Shown in pieces: positions 1-5,226 of a DNA stretch of 5,226 bases (its first letter is position 1; each line of letters opens with the position of its first letter). The DNA comes from a virus. Lineage: Duplodnaviria > Heunggongvirae > Uroviricota > Caudoviricetes. The translations under genes were made by a program, and so were the position numbers. A model generated the notes under the pieces. It did no database searches and had not been told where the DNA came from. It was given only the letters and a program-made list of their open reading frames with translations. Location: IMG/VR virus record IMGVR_UViG_2529292907_000022; one strand, 5' to 3'.

Positions 1-249
1 ATGCGTATTGAAATCTGCATAGCCAAAGAAAAAATGACTAAAATGCCAACCGGTGCTGTGGATGCGTTAAAGGAAGAATTAACCCGACGCATCAGTAAAC
101 GTTATGACGATGTAGAGGTGATCGTAAAAGCTACCAGCAACGATGGCCTTTCTGTTACGCGCACCGCCGATAAAGATTCAGCTAAAACTTTTGTTCAGGA
201 AACTCTGAAAGATACCTGGGAGTCTGCTGACGAGTGGTTTGTTCACTAA
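1..249 (+). CDS. DinI-like protein (DinI family SOS modulator), complete 82 aa
   Basis: ATG at 1, TAA at 247-249. Translation [82 protein letters not shown] has the DinI hallmarks as I remember E. coli DinI (MRIE..IAK start, RRI, LSV, ETWESADxWFV C-terminus) and the right length (~81 aa). Promoter and any LexA box would lie upstream of the window. Confidence 0.8.
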
Positions 250-317
250 TTAGCACGTAAAATCTGTAACGGCTGGAAATCATTCAATACTCGCACTATC
301 GAAAGTTCACCATCCAA

Positions 318-350
318 CCGCAGCACGTTCTTGCTTAAGACGTGCTGCGG
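318..350. terminator. GC-rich stem-loop between the convergent dinI-like gene and the invertase remnant; candidate terminator or structured element
   Basis: Perfect 10-bp inverted repeat ccgcagcacg (318-327) / cgtgctgcgg (341-350) around a 13-nt loop containing the palindrome cttaag. No convincing T-tract follows on either strand, so the terminator call is weak. Confidence 0.3.
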
Positions 351-379
351 CATAATCCCAATGATTACTCCCTGACAGG

Positions 380-715
380 GTTCGTAGGCCACTCAATATC
401 AGGTGCAGTTGATGTATCAACACGGTTCAGTAACACCCGATACTTTTTCTAGGCTTCCACCACCAGCACGACAAGATGCCGCATACAGTGAACCAGTCAG
501 TCCAGTTTTCAGACAACCAGTGCGTCACCTTTTTGAAGGCGCTTTAAAGCACGTTTTAATCCAGGTCGGCCTGTCCTTGTTCCGCTTAATTTATCTTCAA
601 ATATTTGTTCATATCCTGCACAAACAAGAGCGTTTCGTTGCAGATCTGTATTCTGGTCATTTGTTGATACCCTTACATAGCCAATCAGCACGCTGAATCT
701 CCCGTCCAAAAGCAC
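380..715 (-). pseudogene. Din-family serine recombinase / DNA invertase (Gin/Pin/Cin/Hin-like), disrupted remnant
   Basis: Minus-strand ORF 509-715 encodes (M)LLDGRFSVLIGYVRVSTNDQNTDLQRNALVCAGYEQIFEDKLSGTRTGRPGLKRALKRLQKGDALVV, which matches the N-terminus of Gin/Pin-type invertases including the catalytic-serine motif YVRVSTNDQ. The likely true start is the in-frame GTG at 689-691 (VLIGYVRV = canonical MLIGYVRV), preceded by gggag. The same frame continues *KLD*LVHCMRHLVVLVVEA*KKY...: TGA at 509-511 where the conserved Trp of VVWKLDRLGRS is expected, TGA at 497-499 where Arg is expected, TAG at 449-451, and further stops. Recognisable similarity fades by about position 400. The C-terminal helix-turn-helix domain cannot fit before the dinI-like stop at 249. 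Confidence 0.8.
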
Positions 716-745: not shown

Positions 746-771
746 TTATCTAAAACCTCGGTTTACAGGAA
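746..771. other. Left crossover site for the invertase (26-bp gix/pix/cix-like)
   Basis: ttatctaaaacctcggtttacaggaa: two imperfect inverted half-sites around a central tc (758-759). It differs by one base from the Mu gix sequence as I recall it (TTATCCAAAACCTCGGTTTACAGGAA). It is an inverted match (22/26, 12-bp core identical) to the site at 3743-3768 and lies about 30 bp upstream of the invertase start. Confidence 0.8.
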
Positions 772-1953
772 ACGGTAAATCAGGCTTCTGGCGCATTACA
801 GAAAAAACAGAACGGCGCAGATATTCCAGGAAAAGATACCTTCATCAAAAATATTGGGGCCTGCCGCGCATATAGCGCATGGCTGAATATTGGTGGCGAT
901 AGTCAGGTCTGGACAACCGCGCAATTTATTTCGTGGCTGGAGAGTCAGGGAGCATTTAACCATCCTTACTGGATGTGCAAAGGCTCATGGACTTATGCAA
1001 ATAATAAGGTCATTACAGATACAGGTTGCGGAAATATTTGTCTTGCAGGTGCTGTGGTGGAAGTTATTGGCACTCGCGGCGCAATGACCATACGCGTTAC
1101 CACGCCGAGCACGTCCAGCGGTGGCGGAATTACTAACGCTCAATTCACTTATATTAATCATGGTGATGCTTATGCTCCTGGCTGGCGACGAGACTACAAC
1201 ACGAAAAATCAACAACCTGCATTTGCTTTAGGGCAAACAGGAAGCACTGTCGGAAATGATAAAGCTGTTGGCTGGAACTGGAATAGCGGGGTCTATAACG
1301 CAAACATTGGTGGCGCATCGACATTAATCCTCCACTTCAATATGAATACGGGGAGCTGCCCTGCTGTACAGTTCCGCGTGAATTACAGGAACGGCGGTAT
1401 TTTTTATCGTTCAGCCCGTGATGGTTATGGTTTTGAAGCCGACTGGTCCGAATTTTACACCACCACCAGAAAACCTTCAGCAGGAGATGTTGGTGCACTG
1501 CCGTTATCTGGTGGTCAACTGAATGGTGCACTGGGTATCGGAACATCCAGTGCTCTTGGCGGTAATTCGATTGTATTGGGTGATAATGACACGGGCTTTA
1601 AACAAAATGGCGATGGTAATCTGGACGTTTATGCTAATAACGTCCATGTTATGCGCTTTGTTTCCGGCGGCATTCAAAGTAATAAAACCATAAATATTAC
1701 AGGGCGTGTTAACCCCTCGGATTACGGTAACTTTGATTCCCGTTATGTGAAAGATGTTCGACTTGGTTCACAGCAATATTATGGAGTGAACAACTGGCAA
1801 ACATGGAATTTCCAGTGCCCTTCAGGTCATGTATTGTCTGGTATTAATGTTCAGGATACAGGGTCTAACTCTGCCGATAATATAGCGGGCGTTTATTACA
1901 GACCCGTTCAAAAGTATATAAATGGCACCTGGTATAATGTAGCGAGCGTTTAA
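754..1953 (+). CDS. Silent alternative tail-fibre C-terminal (receptor-binding) cassette, Sv'-like; promoterless, starts inside the crossover site
   Basis: Frame 1 is open from 754 to TAA at 1951-1953 with no start codon until 973: [79 protein letters not shown]... It shares a near-identical core ([48 protein letters not shown]) and the C-terminal motif INGTWYN with the expressed fibre tip. Inversion at the central dinucleotides would fuse it in frame to the constant part: ...AAVIEYLGL + QETVNQ... Confidence 0.8.
1360..1436 (+). repeat. Internal inverted repeat, copy A (77 bp, perfect) within the silent Sv' cassette
   Basis: cctgctgtacagttccgcgtgaattacaggaacggcggtattttttatcgttcagcccgtgatggttatggttttga is the exact reverse complement of 3327-3403. 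Flanking sequence stays similar with mostly synonymous differences. Confidence 0.8.
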
Positions 1954-1954
1954 T

Positions 1955-2483
1955 ATGATGCACTTAAAGAACATAAAAGCGGGTAATGCTAAAACACTGG
2001 AACAGTATGAGTTAACAAAGAAACACGGAGTTATCTGGCTTTACTCTGAGGACGGAAAAAACTGGTATGAGGAAGTGAAAAACTTTCAGCCAGACACCAT
2101 AAAGATTGTTTACGATGAAAATAATATTATTGTCGCCATCACCAGAGATGCCTCCACGCTTAATCCCGAAGGTTTTTAGCGTCGTCGAGGTTCCCGATAT
2201 AACGGCCAATCGTCGGACCGATGATTCCGGTAAGTGGATGTTTAAGGATGGAGCTGTGGTTAAACGGATTTATACGGCAGACGAACAGCAACAACAGGCC
2301 GAATCACAAAAGGCCGCATTGCTTTCCGAAGCTGAATCAGTCATCCAGCCGCTGGAACGCGCTGTCAGGTTGAATATGGCAACAGACGAGGAACGCACAC
2401 GACTGGAAGCATGGGAACGCTACAGTGTTCTGGTCAGCCGTGTGGATACGGCAAATCCTGAATGGACACAAAAGCCTGAATAA
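1955..2483 (+). pseudogene. Tail fibre assembly chaperone Tfa' (Mu U'-like), split by a +1 frameshift at a T5 run
   Basis: ATG at 1955 overlaps the Sv' stop (taATATGATG). The N-terminal frame [74 protein letters not shown] stops at TAG 2177-2179. The protein continues in the +1 frame as [32 protein letters not shown]...PEWTQKPE to TAA 2481-2483, colinear with the minus-strand paralogue ([18 protein letters not shown]). The break is at ttttt 2173-2177; T4 would restore the frame. Confidence 0.7.
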
Positions 2484-2488
2484 AAATT

Positions 2489-2508
2489 AAGGCCCGCTAT
2501 CGGGCCTT
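2489..2508. terminator. Hairpin at the centre of the invertible segment between the convergent tfa genes; likely intrinsic terminator, best on the minus strand
   Basis: aaggcccg-ctat-cgggcctt: perfect 8-bp stem, 4-nt loop. It lies 5 nt after the tfa' stop (2481-2483) and 3 nt after the tfa stop (2512-2514). On the minus strand the stem is followed by aattttta; the plus-strand tail (gtctcatt) is weaker. Confidence 0.5.
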
Positions 2509-2511
2509 GTC

Positions 2512-3044
2512 TCATTCAGGTTGTTCGGGAAATGTTACTGGCAGGCTGGAGGTGTCTGTAGATTCGACTTTCTGCGCATAGAGCATCCACCCGGTTAATT
2601 TTTGTTTATTCTCGTCGGAAATGATGCCCAGCCGTAGCTGTGAGTCCCATAGCTGGGTTTTATCCCTGACAAGTTGCAACAGGCTTTGCTTTTCATTCTC
2701 TGCCTGCTGCCTCTGTTCCTCCTCGGTATAAGTTCGCTTTATCACTGCGCCATCTTTGAACATCCATTTACCCGAAATATCAGCACGGCGATTTGCTGTA
2801 ATATCAGGTAATTCAACGACGCTTGCGCCTTCCGGATTAATTGCTGAAACATCCTTTTCAATACAAATAATAACGCCGTTATGGTCATAGGCCATTTTCA
2901 ATGTGTCTGGCCGGAAATTCTTTTGTTCCTCATACCAGTTTTTCCATCATCTGAATAAAGCCATTTGATGTTAAATTGCTTTGTTAGCTGGTATTGCTCT
3001 TTTGTTTTAGGATTGCCAGCAGTAATGTTTTTTAAGTGCATCAT
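2512..3044 (-). pseudogene. Tail fibre assembly chaperone Tfa (Mu U-like) for the expressed fibre, split by a -1 frameshift at an A5 run
   Basis: Minus-strand ATG at 3044-3042, 2 nt after the fibre stop. The N-terminal frame [35 protein letters not shown] runs into junk and a TGA at 2898-2900. The rest, (W)[50 protein letters not shown]...FPEQPE, is in another frame (ORF 2512-2901). The break is at ggaaaaactgg (plus-strand ttttt 2939-2943); the intact paralogue at 2053-2063 has ggaaaaaactgg (A6). Confidence 0.7.
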
Positions 3045-3046
3045 GA

Positions 3047-5226
3047 TTAAATACTCCCCGCGTTATACCACGTCCCATTAATGCAATACTGAATTGGCCT
3101 TGCCTGAGTTGTATCAATTAATTCATCACGGTTTCCGTTAACTGAACCCGTAACGACATAACCTGACCTGTCAGACCAGCCGGGACCATTCCATGTCCGA
3201 ACAGATGACAGACCGCCAAGGCGAATACCTGTAATAAACCTTGAGTTACATTCTGCCTGCGTGTATGCACCAACATCTCCCGCAGAGGGTTTGCGGGTCG
3301 TGGTGTAAAACTCTGACCAGTCAGCCTCAAAACCATAACCATCACGGGCTGAACGATAAAAAATACCGCCGTTCCTGTAATTCACGCGGAACTGTACAGC
3401 AGGACAACTTCCTTCTCCCATATAAAAATGAATAATTAACGTTGATGCACCACTAATAGTTGCGTTATAAGCTCCGCTACTCCAGTTCCATCCAACTGCT
3501 TTATCATTCGCAACGGTGCTTCCTGTTTTCCCTAAGGCAAACGCACCAACATGACTTGCTTTTAATGTGATATCGGAGGAACCATCAAAAGCCACATTGC
3601 TTATTTTCCTGGCAGTTTTTAATTTTGCAGCTGTAGAAGCATTGCCGGATAGTTCACCAGAAAGGCCACTGCTGAATGTTTGTCGATTAGTCCAGGTATT
3701 CGCTGTACTGAGTAACGGTATTTTCTCCCCTCTTGTGCCGAGTTCTCGTAAACCGAGGTATTCGATAACGGCAGCAACGGTCGATTTCGCAAGAATATCC
3801 CGCCCGACTTTTGTCAGGGTTGCCAGGCTGGCGACATCATTCCCCGTAAAATACGGAAACTTGCCTGCCGCAGTAGTAAGTCCGGCCAGCGCCGTCAGGG
3901 TGGCATCTTTCGGTTGCTTACCCGCAAGCGCGTTAGTCATGGTGGTCGCAAAATTCGGGTCGTTGCCCAGCGCCGCAGCCAACTCGTTCAGCGTATTCAG
4001 TGCATCAGGTGACGAATCTACAAGGGCGGCAATCGCAGCCATAACGAAAGCCGTGCTTGCGATTTGGGTATTATTCGTTCCCTGTCGCGCAGTTGGCGTT
4101 GTTGGCGTTCCGGTCAGTGCAGGACTATTTAAGGGCGCTTTCTTGTTCGTTTCACCCATTACCGCCTTAACCGCTTTTGGCGTTGCCGCCAGTGACTCGG
4201 AAGTGCTGTTGGTCGCACTGCTGAGCTGTACTATCACCTTTTTCGTCGTGCTCGCATCCTCCAGCGCCACGGCGGATGCAATATCCTCTGCCCGTTTTGC
4301 TGCTGTCTCGGCGCGCGTTGCCGCGGATTCAGCAGCAACTTTGCTCTGAGATGCAGCCGTCGCACTGCCTGCCGCCTCTGATGCTTTCGTTGTTGCTGTC
4401 GTGGCACTACCTTTCGCTGCTGACGCTTGTCTGGTCGCCTCATCTTTTGAAGCAGACGCAGATGATGCCGATGACGCCGCTGAACTGGCTGACGATGCGG
4501 CTGCCGCCTTAGAGGAAGCAGCATTGTCTGCTGAAGTCTTTGCATTTGTTTCAGAGGTTTTTGCTGCAGAAGCAGACCTCGCTGCTGCAGTGGCTTGCTC
4601 AGTGGCTTTGCCAGCCTTCGTGTGGCTGTCGAAGCGGATGATGCGGCGCTTTCTGCCGATTTTCCGGCGGCGGTGGCACTGGCTGAGGCCTGCCCCGGCA
4701 CTTGTTGACGCGGCACTGGCAGATAATGCAGCCGCTGTTTTGAACCTGCCGCAGCTGAGGCGCTCTGTCCCGCTGCTGTTTCAGAAGACTTAGCGTTCGT
4801 CTCGGACGTTTTTGCCGCCTTCGCGGAATTTCCTGCCGCCGTTGCCGAGGAAGCTGCACTACTGGCACTTGATGATGCATTCGTTTCTGAAGATTTCGCT
4901 GCCTCTTTTGAGGCCGCCGCACCCCGTGCCGAGGTGGCAGCTTCTGACGCCTTCGTGGTCGCTGTGGATGCAGAAGTGGCTGCCGATTTTTGTGATGCTG
5001 CGGCATTCGTTTCTGACGTTTTCGCGGCACTGGCGCTGGTAGCTGCCGCGCTTTTTGATGACTCTGCAGCAGCAGCACTTTTTGCTGCTTCACGGGTCTT
5101 TGTCGATGCCGTTCCTGCGCTGGAAGACGCTGACTGAGCCGACGACGCGGCCTGTCCGGCTGACGTGCTGGCTGCACGTGCTGAGCCTGCAGCATCAGTC
5201 GCATGAGTTGCCGCCTCGCTGGCTGA
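3047..5226 (-). CDS. Side tail fibre protein (lambdoid Stf-like shaft with Mu S-like invertible C-terminus); 5' end outside window; frame disrupted around 4620-4745
   Basis: Minus-strand ORF 3047-4270 ends ...[12 protein letters not shown] with stop at 3049-3047. Its frame stays open upstream and carries the Stf-like stretch [41 protein letters not shown]...[31 protein letters not shown]. From 5226 down to about 4742 a different frame carries the repeat shaft ([26 protein letters not shown] and similar). The right crossover site lies inside the coding sequence at ...[19 protein letters not shown]. Confidence 0.85.
3327..3403 (-). repeat. Internal inverted repeat, copy B (77 bp, perfect) within the expressed fibre tip
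   Basis: Reverse complement of 3327-3403 equals 1360-1436 exactly. Both copies encode the shared core ...[28 protein letters not shown]... Confidence 0.8.
3743..3768. other. Right crossover site (26 bp), inverted relative to the left site, inside the fibre coding sequence
   Basis: ttctcgtaaaccgaggtattcgataa compared with the reverse complement of the left site ttcctgtaaaccgaggttttagataa: 22/26 identical, 12-bp core gtaaaccgaggt identical. It sits at the constant/variable boundary of the fibre (VIEYLGL). Confidence 0.8.
4280..5226 (-). repeat. Ala/Ser/Thr-rich low-complexity repeat region of the fibre shaft (degenerate [12 protein letters not shown]-type repeats)
   Basis: Hand translation gives runs such as [99 protein letters not shown]-rich GCN-codon composition leaves long spurious open frames on both strands. 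Confidence 0.7.

Follow-up and report, generated by a model that had tools for sequence, protein, structure and literature searches.

A Mu G-type fibre-tip inversion cassette with a truncated invertase gene in a lambdoid Escherichia coli prophage

The window, i.e., the whole 5,226-nt stretch of virus record IMGVR_UViG_2529292907_000022, is the distal end of a lambda-like (lambdoid) E. coli prophage. It carries an invertible segment of ~3.0 kb between sites at 746-771 and 3743-3768, with two alternative fibre tips and two convergent chaperone genes. The cassette is of the Mu G-segment type and exchanges the tip of the side tail fibre. The contig stops within the fibre shaft, and the strain is represented by a single assembly with one orientation. 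This contig was identified via the 326-aa ORF, while the 407-aa ORF gave no exact protein match. The features are as follows.

365..448, minus strand: 3' remnant of an older tail-fibre assembly (tfa) gene, translation ending in YRVLLNRVDTSTAPDIEWPTNPVRE and a stop, like the Mu U C-terminus
509..691, minus strand: invertase stub, GTG start at 691, 60 codons, TGA stop at 511-509
607..670: putative recombinational enhancer (sis) inside the stub, with Fis-type 15-mers at 656-670 and 607-621
746..771: left crossover site, TTATCTAAAACCTCGGTTTACAGGAA, identical to Mu gix at 25/26 positions
759..1953, plus strand: silent alternative fibre tip, comprising a Mu S'v N-terminal part, the shared middle domain and a different receptor-binding tip
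1218..1497, plus strand: left copy of the shared middle domain, 280 nt, 84% complementary to its inverted-repeat partner at 3266-3545
1955..2483, plus strand: silent-cassette chaperone gene, Mu U type (Caudo_TAP, E = 1.6e-31), extra T at ~2173
2489..2508: GC-rich terminator-like hairpin between the convergent chaperone genes (terminator scan)
2512..3044, minus strand: expressed-cassette chaperone gene, Mu U' type (Caudo_TAP, E = 3.7e-32), base missing at ~2938-2943
3047..3755, minus strand: expressed (currently fused) variable tip, comprising an N' linker, the shared domain at 3266-3545 and a Mu S'-type receptor-binding end
3743..3768: right crossover site, TTCTCGTAAACCGAGGTATTCGATAA, the same as the right site of intact phage 503458 and of NCTC86
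3769..~4300, minus strand: distal constant part of P2-like H type, Phage_fiber_2 repeat (Pfam PF03406, E = 2.7e-15)
~4260..5226, minus strand: Ala/Ser/Thr-rich lambdoid Stf shaft, running off the contig end, 1-nt indels at 4620, 4693 and 4737

The crossover sites lie in 30-nt inverted-repeat arms (742-771 and 3743-3772) that were found by a repeat search and are 83% complementary. As 26-mers, the left and right sites have 1/26 and 4/26 mismatches to Mu gix, respectively, and the right site matches the reverse complement of the left one at 22/26 positions. Both contain the AAACC-GA-GG core with an identical central dinucleotide, and the pair thus has the two inverted 26-bp sites with conserved half-sites that are typical of the Din family. 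Mononucleotide shuffles gave a chance expectation of 0.145 gix-like matches at ≤9 mismatches. The left site is identical to that of ES1 and ES6, loci in which inversion has been seen (see below). The right inner half-site CGGTTTACGAGAA has two positions unlike ES1/ES6, yet it is identical to that of the intact phage 503458. No third gix-like site occurs within the window, and a shufflon or a Min-like system with extra internal crossover sites was ruled out, since only two gix-like sites were found.

Two alternative fibre C-termini are encoded on opposite strands, each with its own chaperone gene, and each joins one constant N-terminal part in frame, as in Mu G-type modules. The left cassette matches Mu S'v at 98% identity over residues 1-248 and the left cassette of NCTC86 at 95% over residues 156-399. 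In the right cassette, the C-terminal 165 aa are 93% identical to Mu S'v, and the expressed fibre at ~4300-3047 has 86% aa identity over 419 residues to the H protein of Xuanwuvirus 503458. Pfam domains gp37_C and Phage_fiber_2 are present in the fibre sequences. Inversion between the sites in silico joins the silent tip in frame and with read-through. The silent tip has no in-frame start codon before 973. A promoter scan gave 4 promoter-like sites vs 6.4 expected, i.e., no enrichment, and none between the left crossover site and the silent tip, which fits a promoterless silent cassette but is weak evidence for it. After 1-nt corrections, the silent-cassette and expressed-cassette chaperones have 175 and 177 aa and are collinear with Mu U and U', respectively. 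Terminators are annotated in D108 at the position equivalent to the hairpin. The preliminary description of this DNA had proposed inverted 26-bp sites, expressed and silent fibre tips, an in-frame fusion of the latter on inversion, and two convergent chaperone genes; these are borne out by the data above.

The constant part of the fibre has two origins. The shaft at 4260-5226 is 89-90% identical at the nt level to side tail fibre genes of the lambdoid phages mEp460, mEp332, and PhiR, and 97% identical to NCTC86, whose intact J-lom-stf region encodes a 934-aa fibre. With its three indels corrected, a reading frame of 726 aa is opened. The shaft is classed as lambdoid Stf by this homology, together with J, lom, and the stf N-terminal domain upstream in NCTC86. 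The lambdoid J-lom-stf context is seen in NCTC86, 504239, 20AR0300, and ES1/ES6, and the same gene order is deduced here from these relatives because the upstream genes of the window are off the contig. By contrast, the ~0.5 kb next to the crossover site (3769-~4300) has 86% protein identity to the P2-like Xuanwuvirus 503458 H, starting at H residue 243, and the blastn match to this phage reaches 4250. Hence, the earlier view of a lambdoid Stf-type shaft as the constant part stands for ~4260-5226 and fails for the site-proximal stretch. Nucleotide identity to the Mu gin 5' end, gix, S'v, U, and U' is 89-95%. By these homologies, the fibre gene is a three-part mosaic of lambdoid Stf shaft, P2-like H-type distal constant part, and Mu-type cassettes. 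The broader proposal of a mosaic Din-family (Gin-lineage) tail-fibre inversion module, ~3.0 kb long as in Mu G and joined to a lambdoid Stf-type fibre, therefore holds.

Only a fragment of the invertase gene is found outside the left site. It starts with GTG at 691, includes the catalytic-Ser region (MLIGYVRVST), and ends after 60 codons where TGG has become TGA in place of Trp61 (W61). Alignment with Mu, Xuanwuvirus 503458, and NCTC86 shows that gin homology ends at ~501, corresponding to gin nt 191. At the protein level, the stub is 95% identical to residues 1-60 of Mu Gin and 75% identical to e14 PinE. The Pfam Resolvase N-terminal domain is detected (E = 4.6e-15), covering only profile positions 2-69 of 145. 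A functional Din-family serine invertase of ~190 aa has a catalytic domain, helix E, and a C-terminal HTH, and only codons 1-60 are present here. With a nonsense codon and the remainder deleted, the module's own invertase gene is dead. The preliminary description had listed an 'invertase gene' here and had called the switch 'complete', with 'every part' in place; both statements must be withdrawn for this non-functional 60-codon remnant (691-509). The stub adjoins the tfa remnant, which marks the left edge of the acquired module and is annotated in relatives as 'tail fiber assembly protein, missing N-terminus'. The stub/tfa junction is identical in 536/5,426 complete E. coli genomes; the same gin truncation is present in complete genomes.

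Din-family switches have a Fis-dependent enhancer in cis, ~100 bp away from one site and within the 5' part of the invertase gene. The 5' 191 nt of gin, with the putative enhancer region, is kept here at ~94% identity. The Fis-type 15-mers at 656-670 and 607-621 are candidate enhancer sites, and the sis assignment is a putative one. The candidate 15-mers lie ~95 bp from the left-site centre, in agreement with Hin, whose enhancer is ~100 bp from hixL (PMC3798978). By position and sequence similarity, the enhancer is probably retained in the stub, where it may function.

The closest system is Mu G/Gin, with D108 and P1 C/Cin: the left site and the stub match gix and Gin as given above, homologues of S'v, U, and U' are 89-98% identical, the 3.0-kb segment has convergent chaperone genes with a hairpin between them, and the fibre C-terminus is swapped through in-frame fusion at the site. 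In contrast to Mu G, the invertase is truncated here, the constant part is not Mu Sc, and another cassette takes the place of Mu Sv. Of the two cassettes, one is a hybrid that joins the S'v N-terminal part to a different tip, and the second puts the S' tip behind a different linker; both share the 280-nt domain, which Mu does not have as an inverted repeat. P2-like Xuanwuvirus (Escherichia phage 503458; strain 605 prophage) shares the order fibre, tfa, tfa', silent tip, invertase; 503458 has an identical right site, and its H residues 243-661 are collinear with the expressed fibre at ~4300-3047, at 86% identity. However, Xuanwuvirus prophages and phages have an intact invertase of ~195-200 aa where a stub joined to a tfa remnant is found here, and their fibre N-terminus is a myovirus baseplate-attached H instead of a lambdoid Stf shaft.

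The e14 P segment with PinE (E. coli K-12, a lambdoid-type defective prophage) is similar in being a Din switch on a prophage tail-fibre C-terminus, and other prophages' invertases can flip it in trans (PMC4272514; PMC12529663). It differs in the size of the segment (1.8 kb), in retaining an intact pinE, and in PinE being only 75% identical to the stub. The comparison with e14 that had been suggested earlier was negative: neither StfE nor StfP shows BLASTP similarity to the cassettes, and the sequences of pix and gix differ at 8-9/26 positions; e14 is thus ruled out as the closest relative.

Among near-identical relatives that share this stub, inversion has taken place in nature. ES1 and ES6, whose loci are 99.8% identical and both carry the dead stub, differ by a 3.05-kb stretch flipped exactly between the sites, with breakpoints mapping to the 26-bp sites and overlaps of only ~42 nt. 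This inversion must have been driven in trans, because both loci have the dead invertase stub. Behind the same stub, one junction was found in 97 genomes and the other in 58, many at 99.5-100% identity. A whole-window search of complete E. coli genomes gave coverage of ≤77% for the simulated inverted isomer vs 82% for the real orientation, a comparison that is uninformative because the segment interior is mosaic. Homologues of the missing 3' part of gin occur in 3,173/5,426 genomes, and trans invertases are therefore common. Din invertases are known to cross-act: the e14 P segment is a substrate for PinQ, PinR, and PinE, Mu G for PinE, and the H segment for Fin (PMC12529663).

The most probable explanation, with good confidence, is that of a lambdoid prophage with a G-type switch, a dead invertase in cis, and flipping only in trans. 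A lambdoid side tail fibre gene on the minus strand has gained a P2/Mu-type distal half along with its G-type invertible segment. As the segment now lies, the right gix-like site joins the Stf shaft and H-type part to the tip with the Mu S'-type receptor-binding end; the U'-type chaperone gene comes next, and the plus strand carries the other tip and the U-type chaperone gene in silent form. One inversion, catalysed at the pair of 26-bp sites by a serine invertase of the Gin/Pin type, would swap the tips with the frame kept; the enzyme would be activated via Fis bound at the enhancer probably kept in the stub. Since its recombinase is a non-functional remnant, the module cannot invert itself, and flipping would need the invertase of another prophage acting in trans, which is presumably available in this strain. 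The fused fibre would presumably be expressed at present.

A 'state of decay' had also been suggested for the locus. This applies to the invertase; it is doubtful for five 1-nt homopolymer indels at ~2173, ~2938, 4620, 4693, and 4737, which break the shaft and both chaperone genes. If these indels are real, there is no functional fibre or chaperone in either orientation and the switch is a relic: the fibre, chaperone, and invertase genes would be genuine pseudogenes and the segment would not invert in this strain. The dead invertase agrees with such a frozen locus, as does the frameshift density, 5 in ~4.5 kb of the locus vs 2 in 7.8 kb of the housekeeping flank. However, all five are homopolymer-length changes in otherwise pristine genes without nonsense mutations, and correction restores full-length products that are collinear with Mu U, U', and an NCTC86-type Stf. 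None of the five is present in NCTC86, the closest relative compared, and the two chaperone indels, the only ones that can be checked against Mu, were called against both NCTC86 and Mu. The indels may be assembly errors, because aspS, an essential gene of the same draft contig, has a frameshift of this kind as well (T6 vs T7), which cannot be real. As relatives with the same stub also invert, a frozen relic is unlikely. Apparent decay in draft assemblies can stem from homopolymer error, and caution is needed in such cases.

The variable tips have in addition a history of exchange inside the segment. The two copies of the middle domain form a reciprocal mosaic of Mu-type and NCTC86-type sequence with an identical centre of ~75 nt, and the segment interior (~1498-3265) has the opposite orientation to that in 504239, Mu, and a P2-like prophage, the boundary falling within the shared domain. 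The switch points of the copies differ (index ~178-198 in the left and ~142-147 in the right copy); therefore, a simple intramolecular homologous inversion was not adopted as the sole origin of the tip swap, and gene conversion or separate exchanges are equally possible. RecA-dependent homologous recombination between internal repeats (the 280-nt domain and ~390 nt of tfa/tfa' homology) as the main route of inversion would fit this mosaic, but it is very improbable, given that ES1 and ES6 differ at the 26-bp sites and not at internal repeats, that the 280-nt repeat is missing from ES-type and 504239-type segments, and that the internal swap is a one-off evolutionary event which exchange between co-resident prophages could also yield.

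Site-specific inversion in trans and internal exchange may be joined in one tentative reading, which is given somewhat less than an even chance. A lambdoid prophage lineage found in ~10% of complete E. coli genomes would keep an orphan G-type switch, with sites and enhancer-bearing stub but the enzyme lost, and its state would be set by the invertases of co-resident prophages. Homologous inversion at the shared domain would add a second layer of diversification by re-pairing linkers with tips and chaperone genes. If this is true, co-resident prophages' invertases would set the host-range state, or else some surface or defence phenotype that benefits the host, of the kind reported for e14 StfE2 and PinQ.

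The cassette with a dead 60-codon stub is an ordinary, widespread variant of a textbook system. It is of little import for the mechanism, which is textbook Din-family inversion, in agreement with the earlier remark that this is established biology. It is a clear example of fibre-gene modules exchanged among lambdoid, P2-like, and Mu-like phages. Since the dead-invertase module is common in E. coli and both orientations are found, it is also a natural case of a prophage switch run by the recombinase of another prophage. Such an orphan switch is relevant to predicting the host range of induced prophages and to recent anti-phage-defence claims for such inversions.

The module is best regarded as an orphan switch: a G-type inversion segment for the tail fibre, attached to a lambdoid Stf, that can be operated only in trans. 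Its crossover sites, cassettes and reading frame are those of a Din switch; its invertase is not. The kind is well known and the configuration common among E. coli genomes. The mildly new points are confined to how common the invertase-less version is, its flipping in nature, and a nested swap of the fibre tips. The module's lineage is that of Gin and the G segment, not that of the e14 P segment. Comparison with e14, which the preliminary description had named, detected no similarity to either StfE or StfP; the invertase remnant shares 75% identity with PinE, and the e14 pix sites are unlike gix at 8–9 of 26 positions.

Contig AIFW01000027.1 (76,191 nt; assembly GCA_000249615.2) ends in 5.2 kb that are identical to the window. 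The adjoining chromosome carries znuCB, ruvAB, ruvC, nudB, aspS and yecD and is 99.5% identical to E. coli, which is therefore the host. The whole window was absent from every complete E. coli genome searched, the top coverage being 82% at 95% identity. In the closest relative, strain NCTC86, the corresponding homologous stretch forms the last part of a lambda-like prophage, in which the genes run J, lom, stf, tfa, tfa', silent fibre piece, recombinase fragment and tfa fragment (tfa and tfa' being chaperone genes); a J-lom-stf prophage occupies the same yecD-dinI position in strain 20AR0300. The features are as follows.

1–249, + strand, DinI-like gene (Pfam DinI, E = 1e-19), first gene of the window
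246–392, − strand, 48-codon ORF, hypothetical in the annotation of relatives
509–691, − strand, invertase remnant (stub)
746–771, left crossover site
759–1953, + strand, left cassette, silent alternative fibre tip
2489–2508, GC-rich hairpin between the two chaperone genes
3047–3755, − strand, right cassette, fused fibre tip
3743–3768, right crossover site

The DinI-like gene and the 48-codon ORF form the usual terminus of this prophage family, beside yecD.

The preliminary description regarded the switch as complete; this is refuted by the invertase, a stub of 60 residues (95% identity to Gin) with TGA in place of Trp61. Similarity to gin is gone eight bases further on, the remainder of the gene being lost, and the final ~27 codons of an older tfa gene lie next to the stub. 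A 68-codon ORF is listed at 509–715, and its start by homology is GTG 691; Mu gin likewise starts with GTG. Pfam matches only positions 2–69 of the 145-position resolvase catalytic domain. The stub/tfa-remnant junction (window 420–580) is identical in the related lambdoid prophages of NCTC86, 504239, ES1 and ES6 and was counted in 536 of 5,426 complete E. coli genomes, in many of them at 100% identity. The junction is thus a genuine and old feature rather than an artefact of assembly, and the orphan configuration is widespread. The stub spans the place where Din invertase genes hold the Fis-dependent enhancer. Segments 656–670 and 607–621, at a distance of ~95 bp from the left-site centre, are candidate Fis sites. 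In Hin the enhancer is roughly 100 bp from the site (PMC3798978). The distance here fits that of Hin; position and likeness to Fis-site sequences suggest that a putative enhancer is kept in the stub.

The inverted repeat at the crossover sites is real, its 30-nt arms (742–771 and 3743–3772) being 83% complementary by repeat search and alignment. The left site, TTATCTAAAACCTCGGTTTACAGGAA, has one mismatch to Mu gix and the right site, TTCTCGTAAACCGAGGTATTCGATAA, four; the latter is identical to the right sites of NCTC86 and of phage 503458, a P2-like Xuanwuvirus with an intact invertase. Both contain the AAACC-GA-GG core, in opposite orientation, and their outer edges are 3,023 bp apart. The window holds no third gix-like site, with shuffled sequences giving 0.145 hits even at 9 mismatches. 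Simulated exchange of the cores gave a reading frame without interruption, which bears out the proposal that the silent tip would fuse in frame; the TAA at 751–753 is part of the outer half-site, which stays put on inversion. All four half-sites occur in evidently working loci, three in ES1/ES6 and the fourth in phage 503458.

Natural flipping is seen in the E. coli isolates ES1 and ES6, both taken from the same frog-farm sediment. At bioA-ybhB each has a lambdoid prophage that contains the same stub, in a locus 93–96% identical to the window. The two loci are 99.8% identical, but 3.05 kb is inverted exactly between two gix-like sites (locus 3637–6723), and their identical chaperone proteins have swapped positions. 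When the tfa remnant and stub joined to either inner sequence were used as queries, one junction was found in 97 genomes and the other in 58, many at 99.5–100% identity. The shared truncation is almost certainly older than these orientation differences, and inversion has thus happened with no enzyme encoded in cis. For the missing 3' two-thirds of gin, homologues are present in 3,173 of the 5,426 genomes. Din invertases are also published to act on one another's segments (PMC12529663): the e14 P segment is inverted by PinQ, PinR and PinE alike, Mu G by PinE, and the Salmonella H segment by Fin. In E. coli cultures, segments of e14, Mu-like and P2-like prophages are documented to invert (PMC4272514).

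Judged by its sequence, the fibre is a mosaic of three parts. Positions 4260–5226 have 89–90% identity to lambdoid side tail fibre genes (mEp460, mEp332, PhiR series, ev099). Between ~4300 and 3047 the encoded product shares 86% identity over 419 residues with positions 243–661 of the phage 503458 H fibre, a stretch that takes in about 0.5 kb of constant sequence ahead of the crossover site. The silent cassette is Mu-like. The lambdoid Stf shaft of the preliminary description is thus right for the proximal part only, since the constant part near the site is H-like. Within 4350–5226 the shaft contains imperfect direct repeats of about 26–33 nt, 62–82% identical and spaced mostly by multiples of 3 (84, 126, 147 and 150 nt), which reflect a repetitive Ala/Ser/Thr-rich protein. 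The window and contig stop together within this shaft, probably owing to its repetitiveness.

Identity to Mu is 94.5% over 501–1497 (the opening 191 nt of gin, gixR and the S'v N-terminal part) and 89% over 1891–3545 (the Sv end, U, U' and the S'v C-terminal part). Residues 1–248 of the left cassette have 98% identity to Mu S'v and are followed by a different tip (95% identity to the NCTC86 left cassette), and the final 165 residues of the right cassette have 93% identity to Mu S'v. Both chaperone genes match Caudo_TAP in Pfam (E about 1e-31 to 1e-32) and, with a 1-nt correction each, give proteins of 175 and 177 aa collinear with Mu U and U'.

As assembled, the chaperone genes are each split, one near 2173 and the other near 2938, and the shaft frame shifts at 4737, 4693 and 4620. 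Each of the five indels changes a homopolymer by 1 nt relative to NCTC86, and the two in the chaperone genes differ from Mu as well. Correction of the three shaft indels leaves a 726-aa frame open to the contig end; the NCTC86 fibre is intact at 934 aa. The essential aspS gene, 1.5 kb upstream of the window on the same contig, is broken into two ORFs, a homopolymer in it differing in length from that of other E. coli genomes (T6 versus T7; about 7554 in the compared contig stretch). Such a frameshift cannot be genuine, and the assembly therefore contains homopolymer errors, of which the five indels may be further cases. Across the 7.8 kb of housekeeping DNA just one further indel occurs, an intergenic A7-versus-A6 at about 3468 of that stretch; because the density in the window exceeds that in the flank, some of the five could be real.

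Both cassettes share a 280-nt domain, present as an inverted repeat (1218–1497 and 3266–3545, 84% identical) that was not found in Mu, 503458, 504239 or ES6. Compared with 504239, Mu and the strain 605 P2-like prophage, the segment interior is inverted, and the boundary falls within this domain. The left copy is Mu-type to about position 177 and NCTC86-type beyond, the right copy NCTC86-type to about position 146 and Mu-like beyond, and the central ~75 nt are identical between them. This reciprocal mosaic suggests a homologous crossover between the inverted copies, with some gene conversion, that would have swapped tips and chaperone genes; a series of exchanges with other prophages would account for it as well. 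The two NCTC86 cassettes (6432–7743 and 9429–8138 of the compared locus) share 85% identity over 1.3 kb and have a common linker, the shared domain and similar tips, so that inversion there would alter the fibre far less than in Mu.
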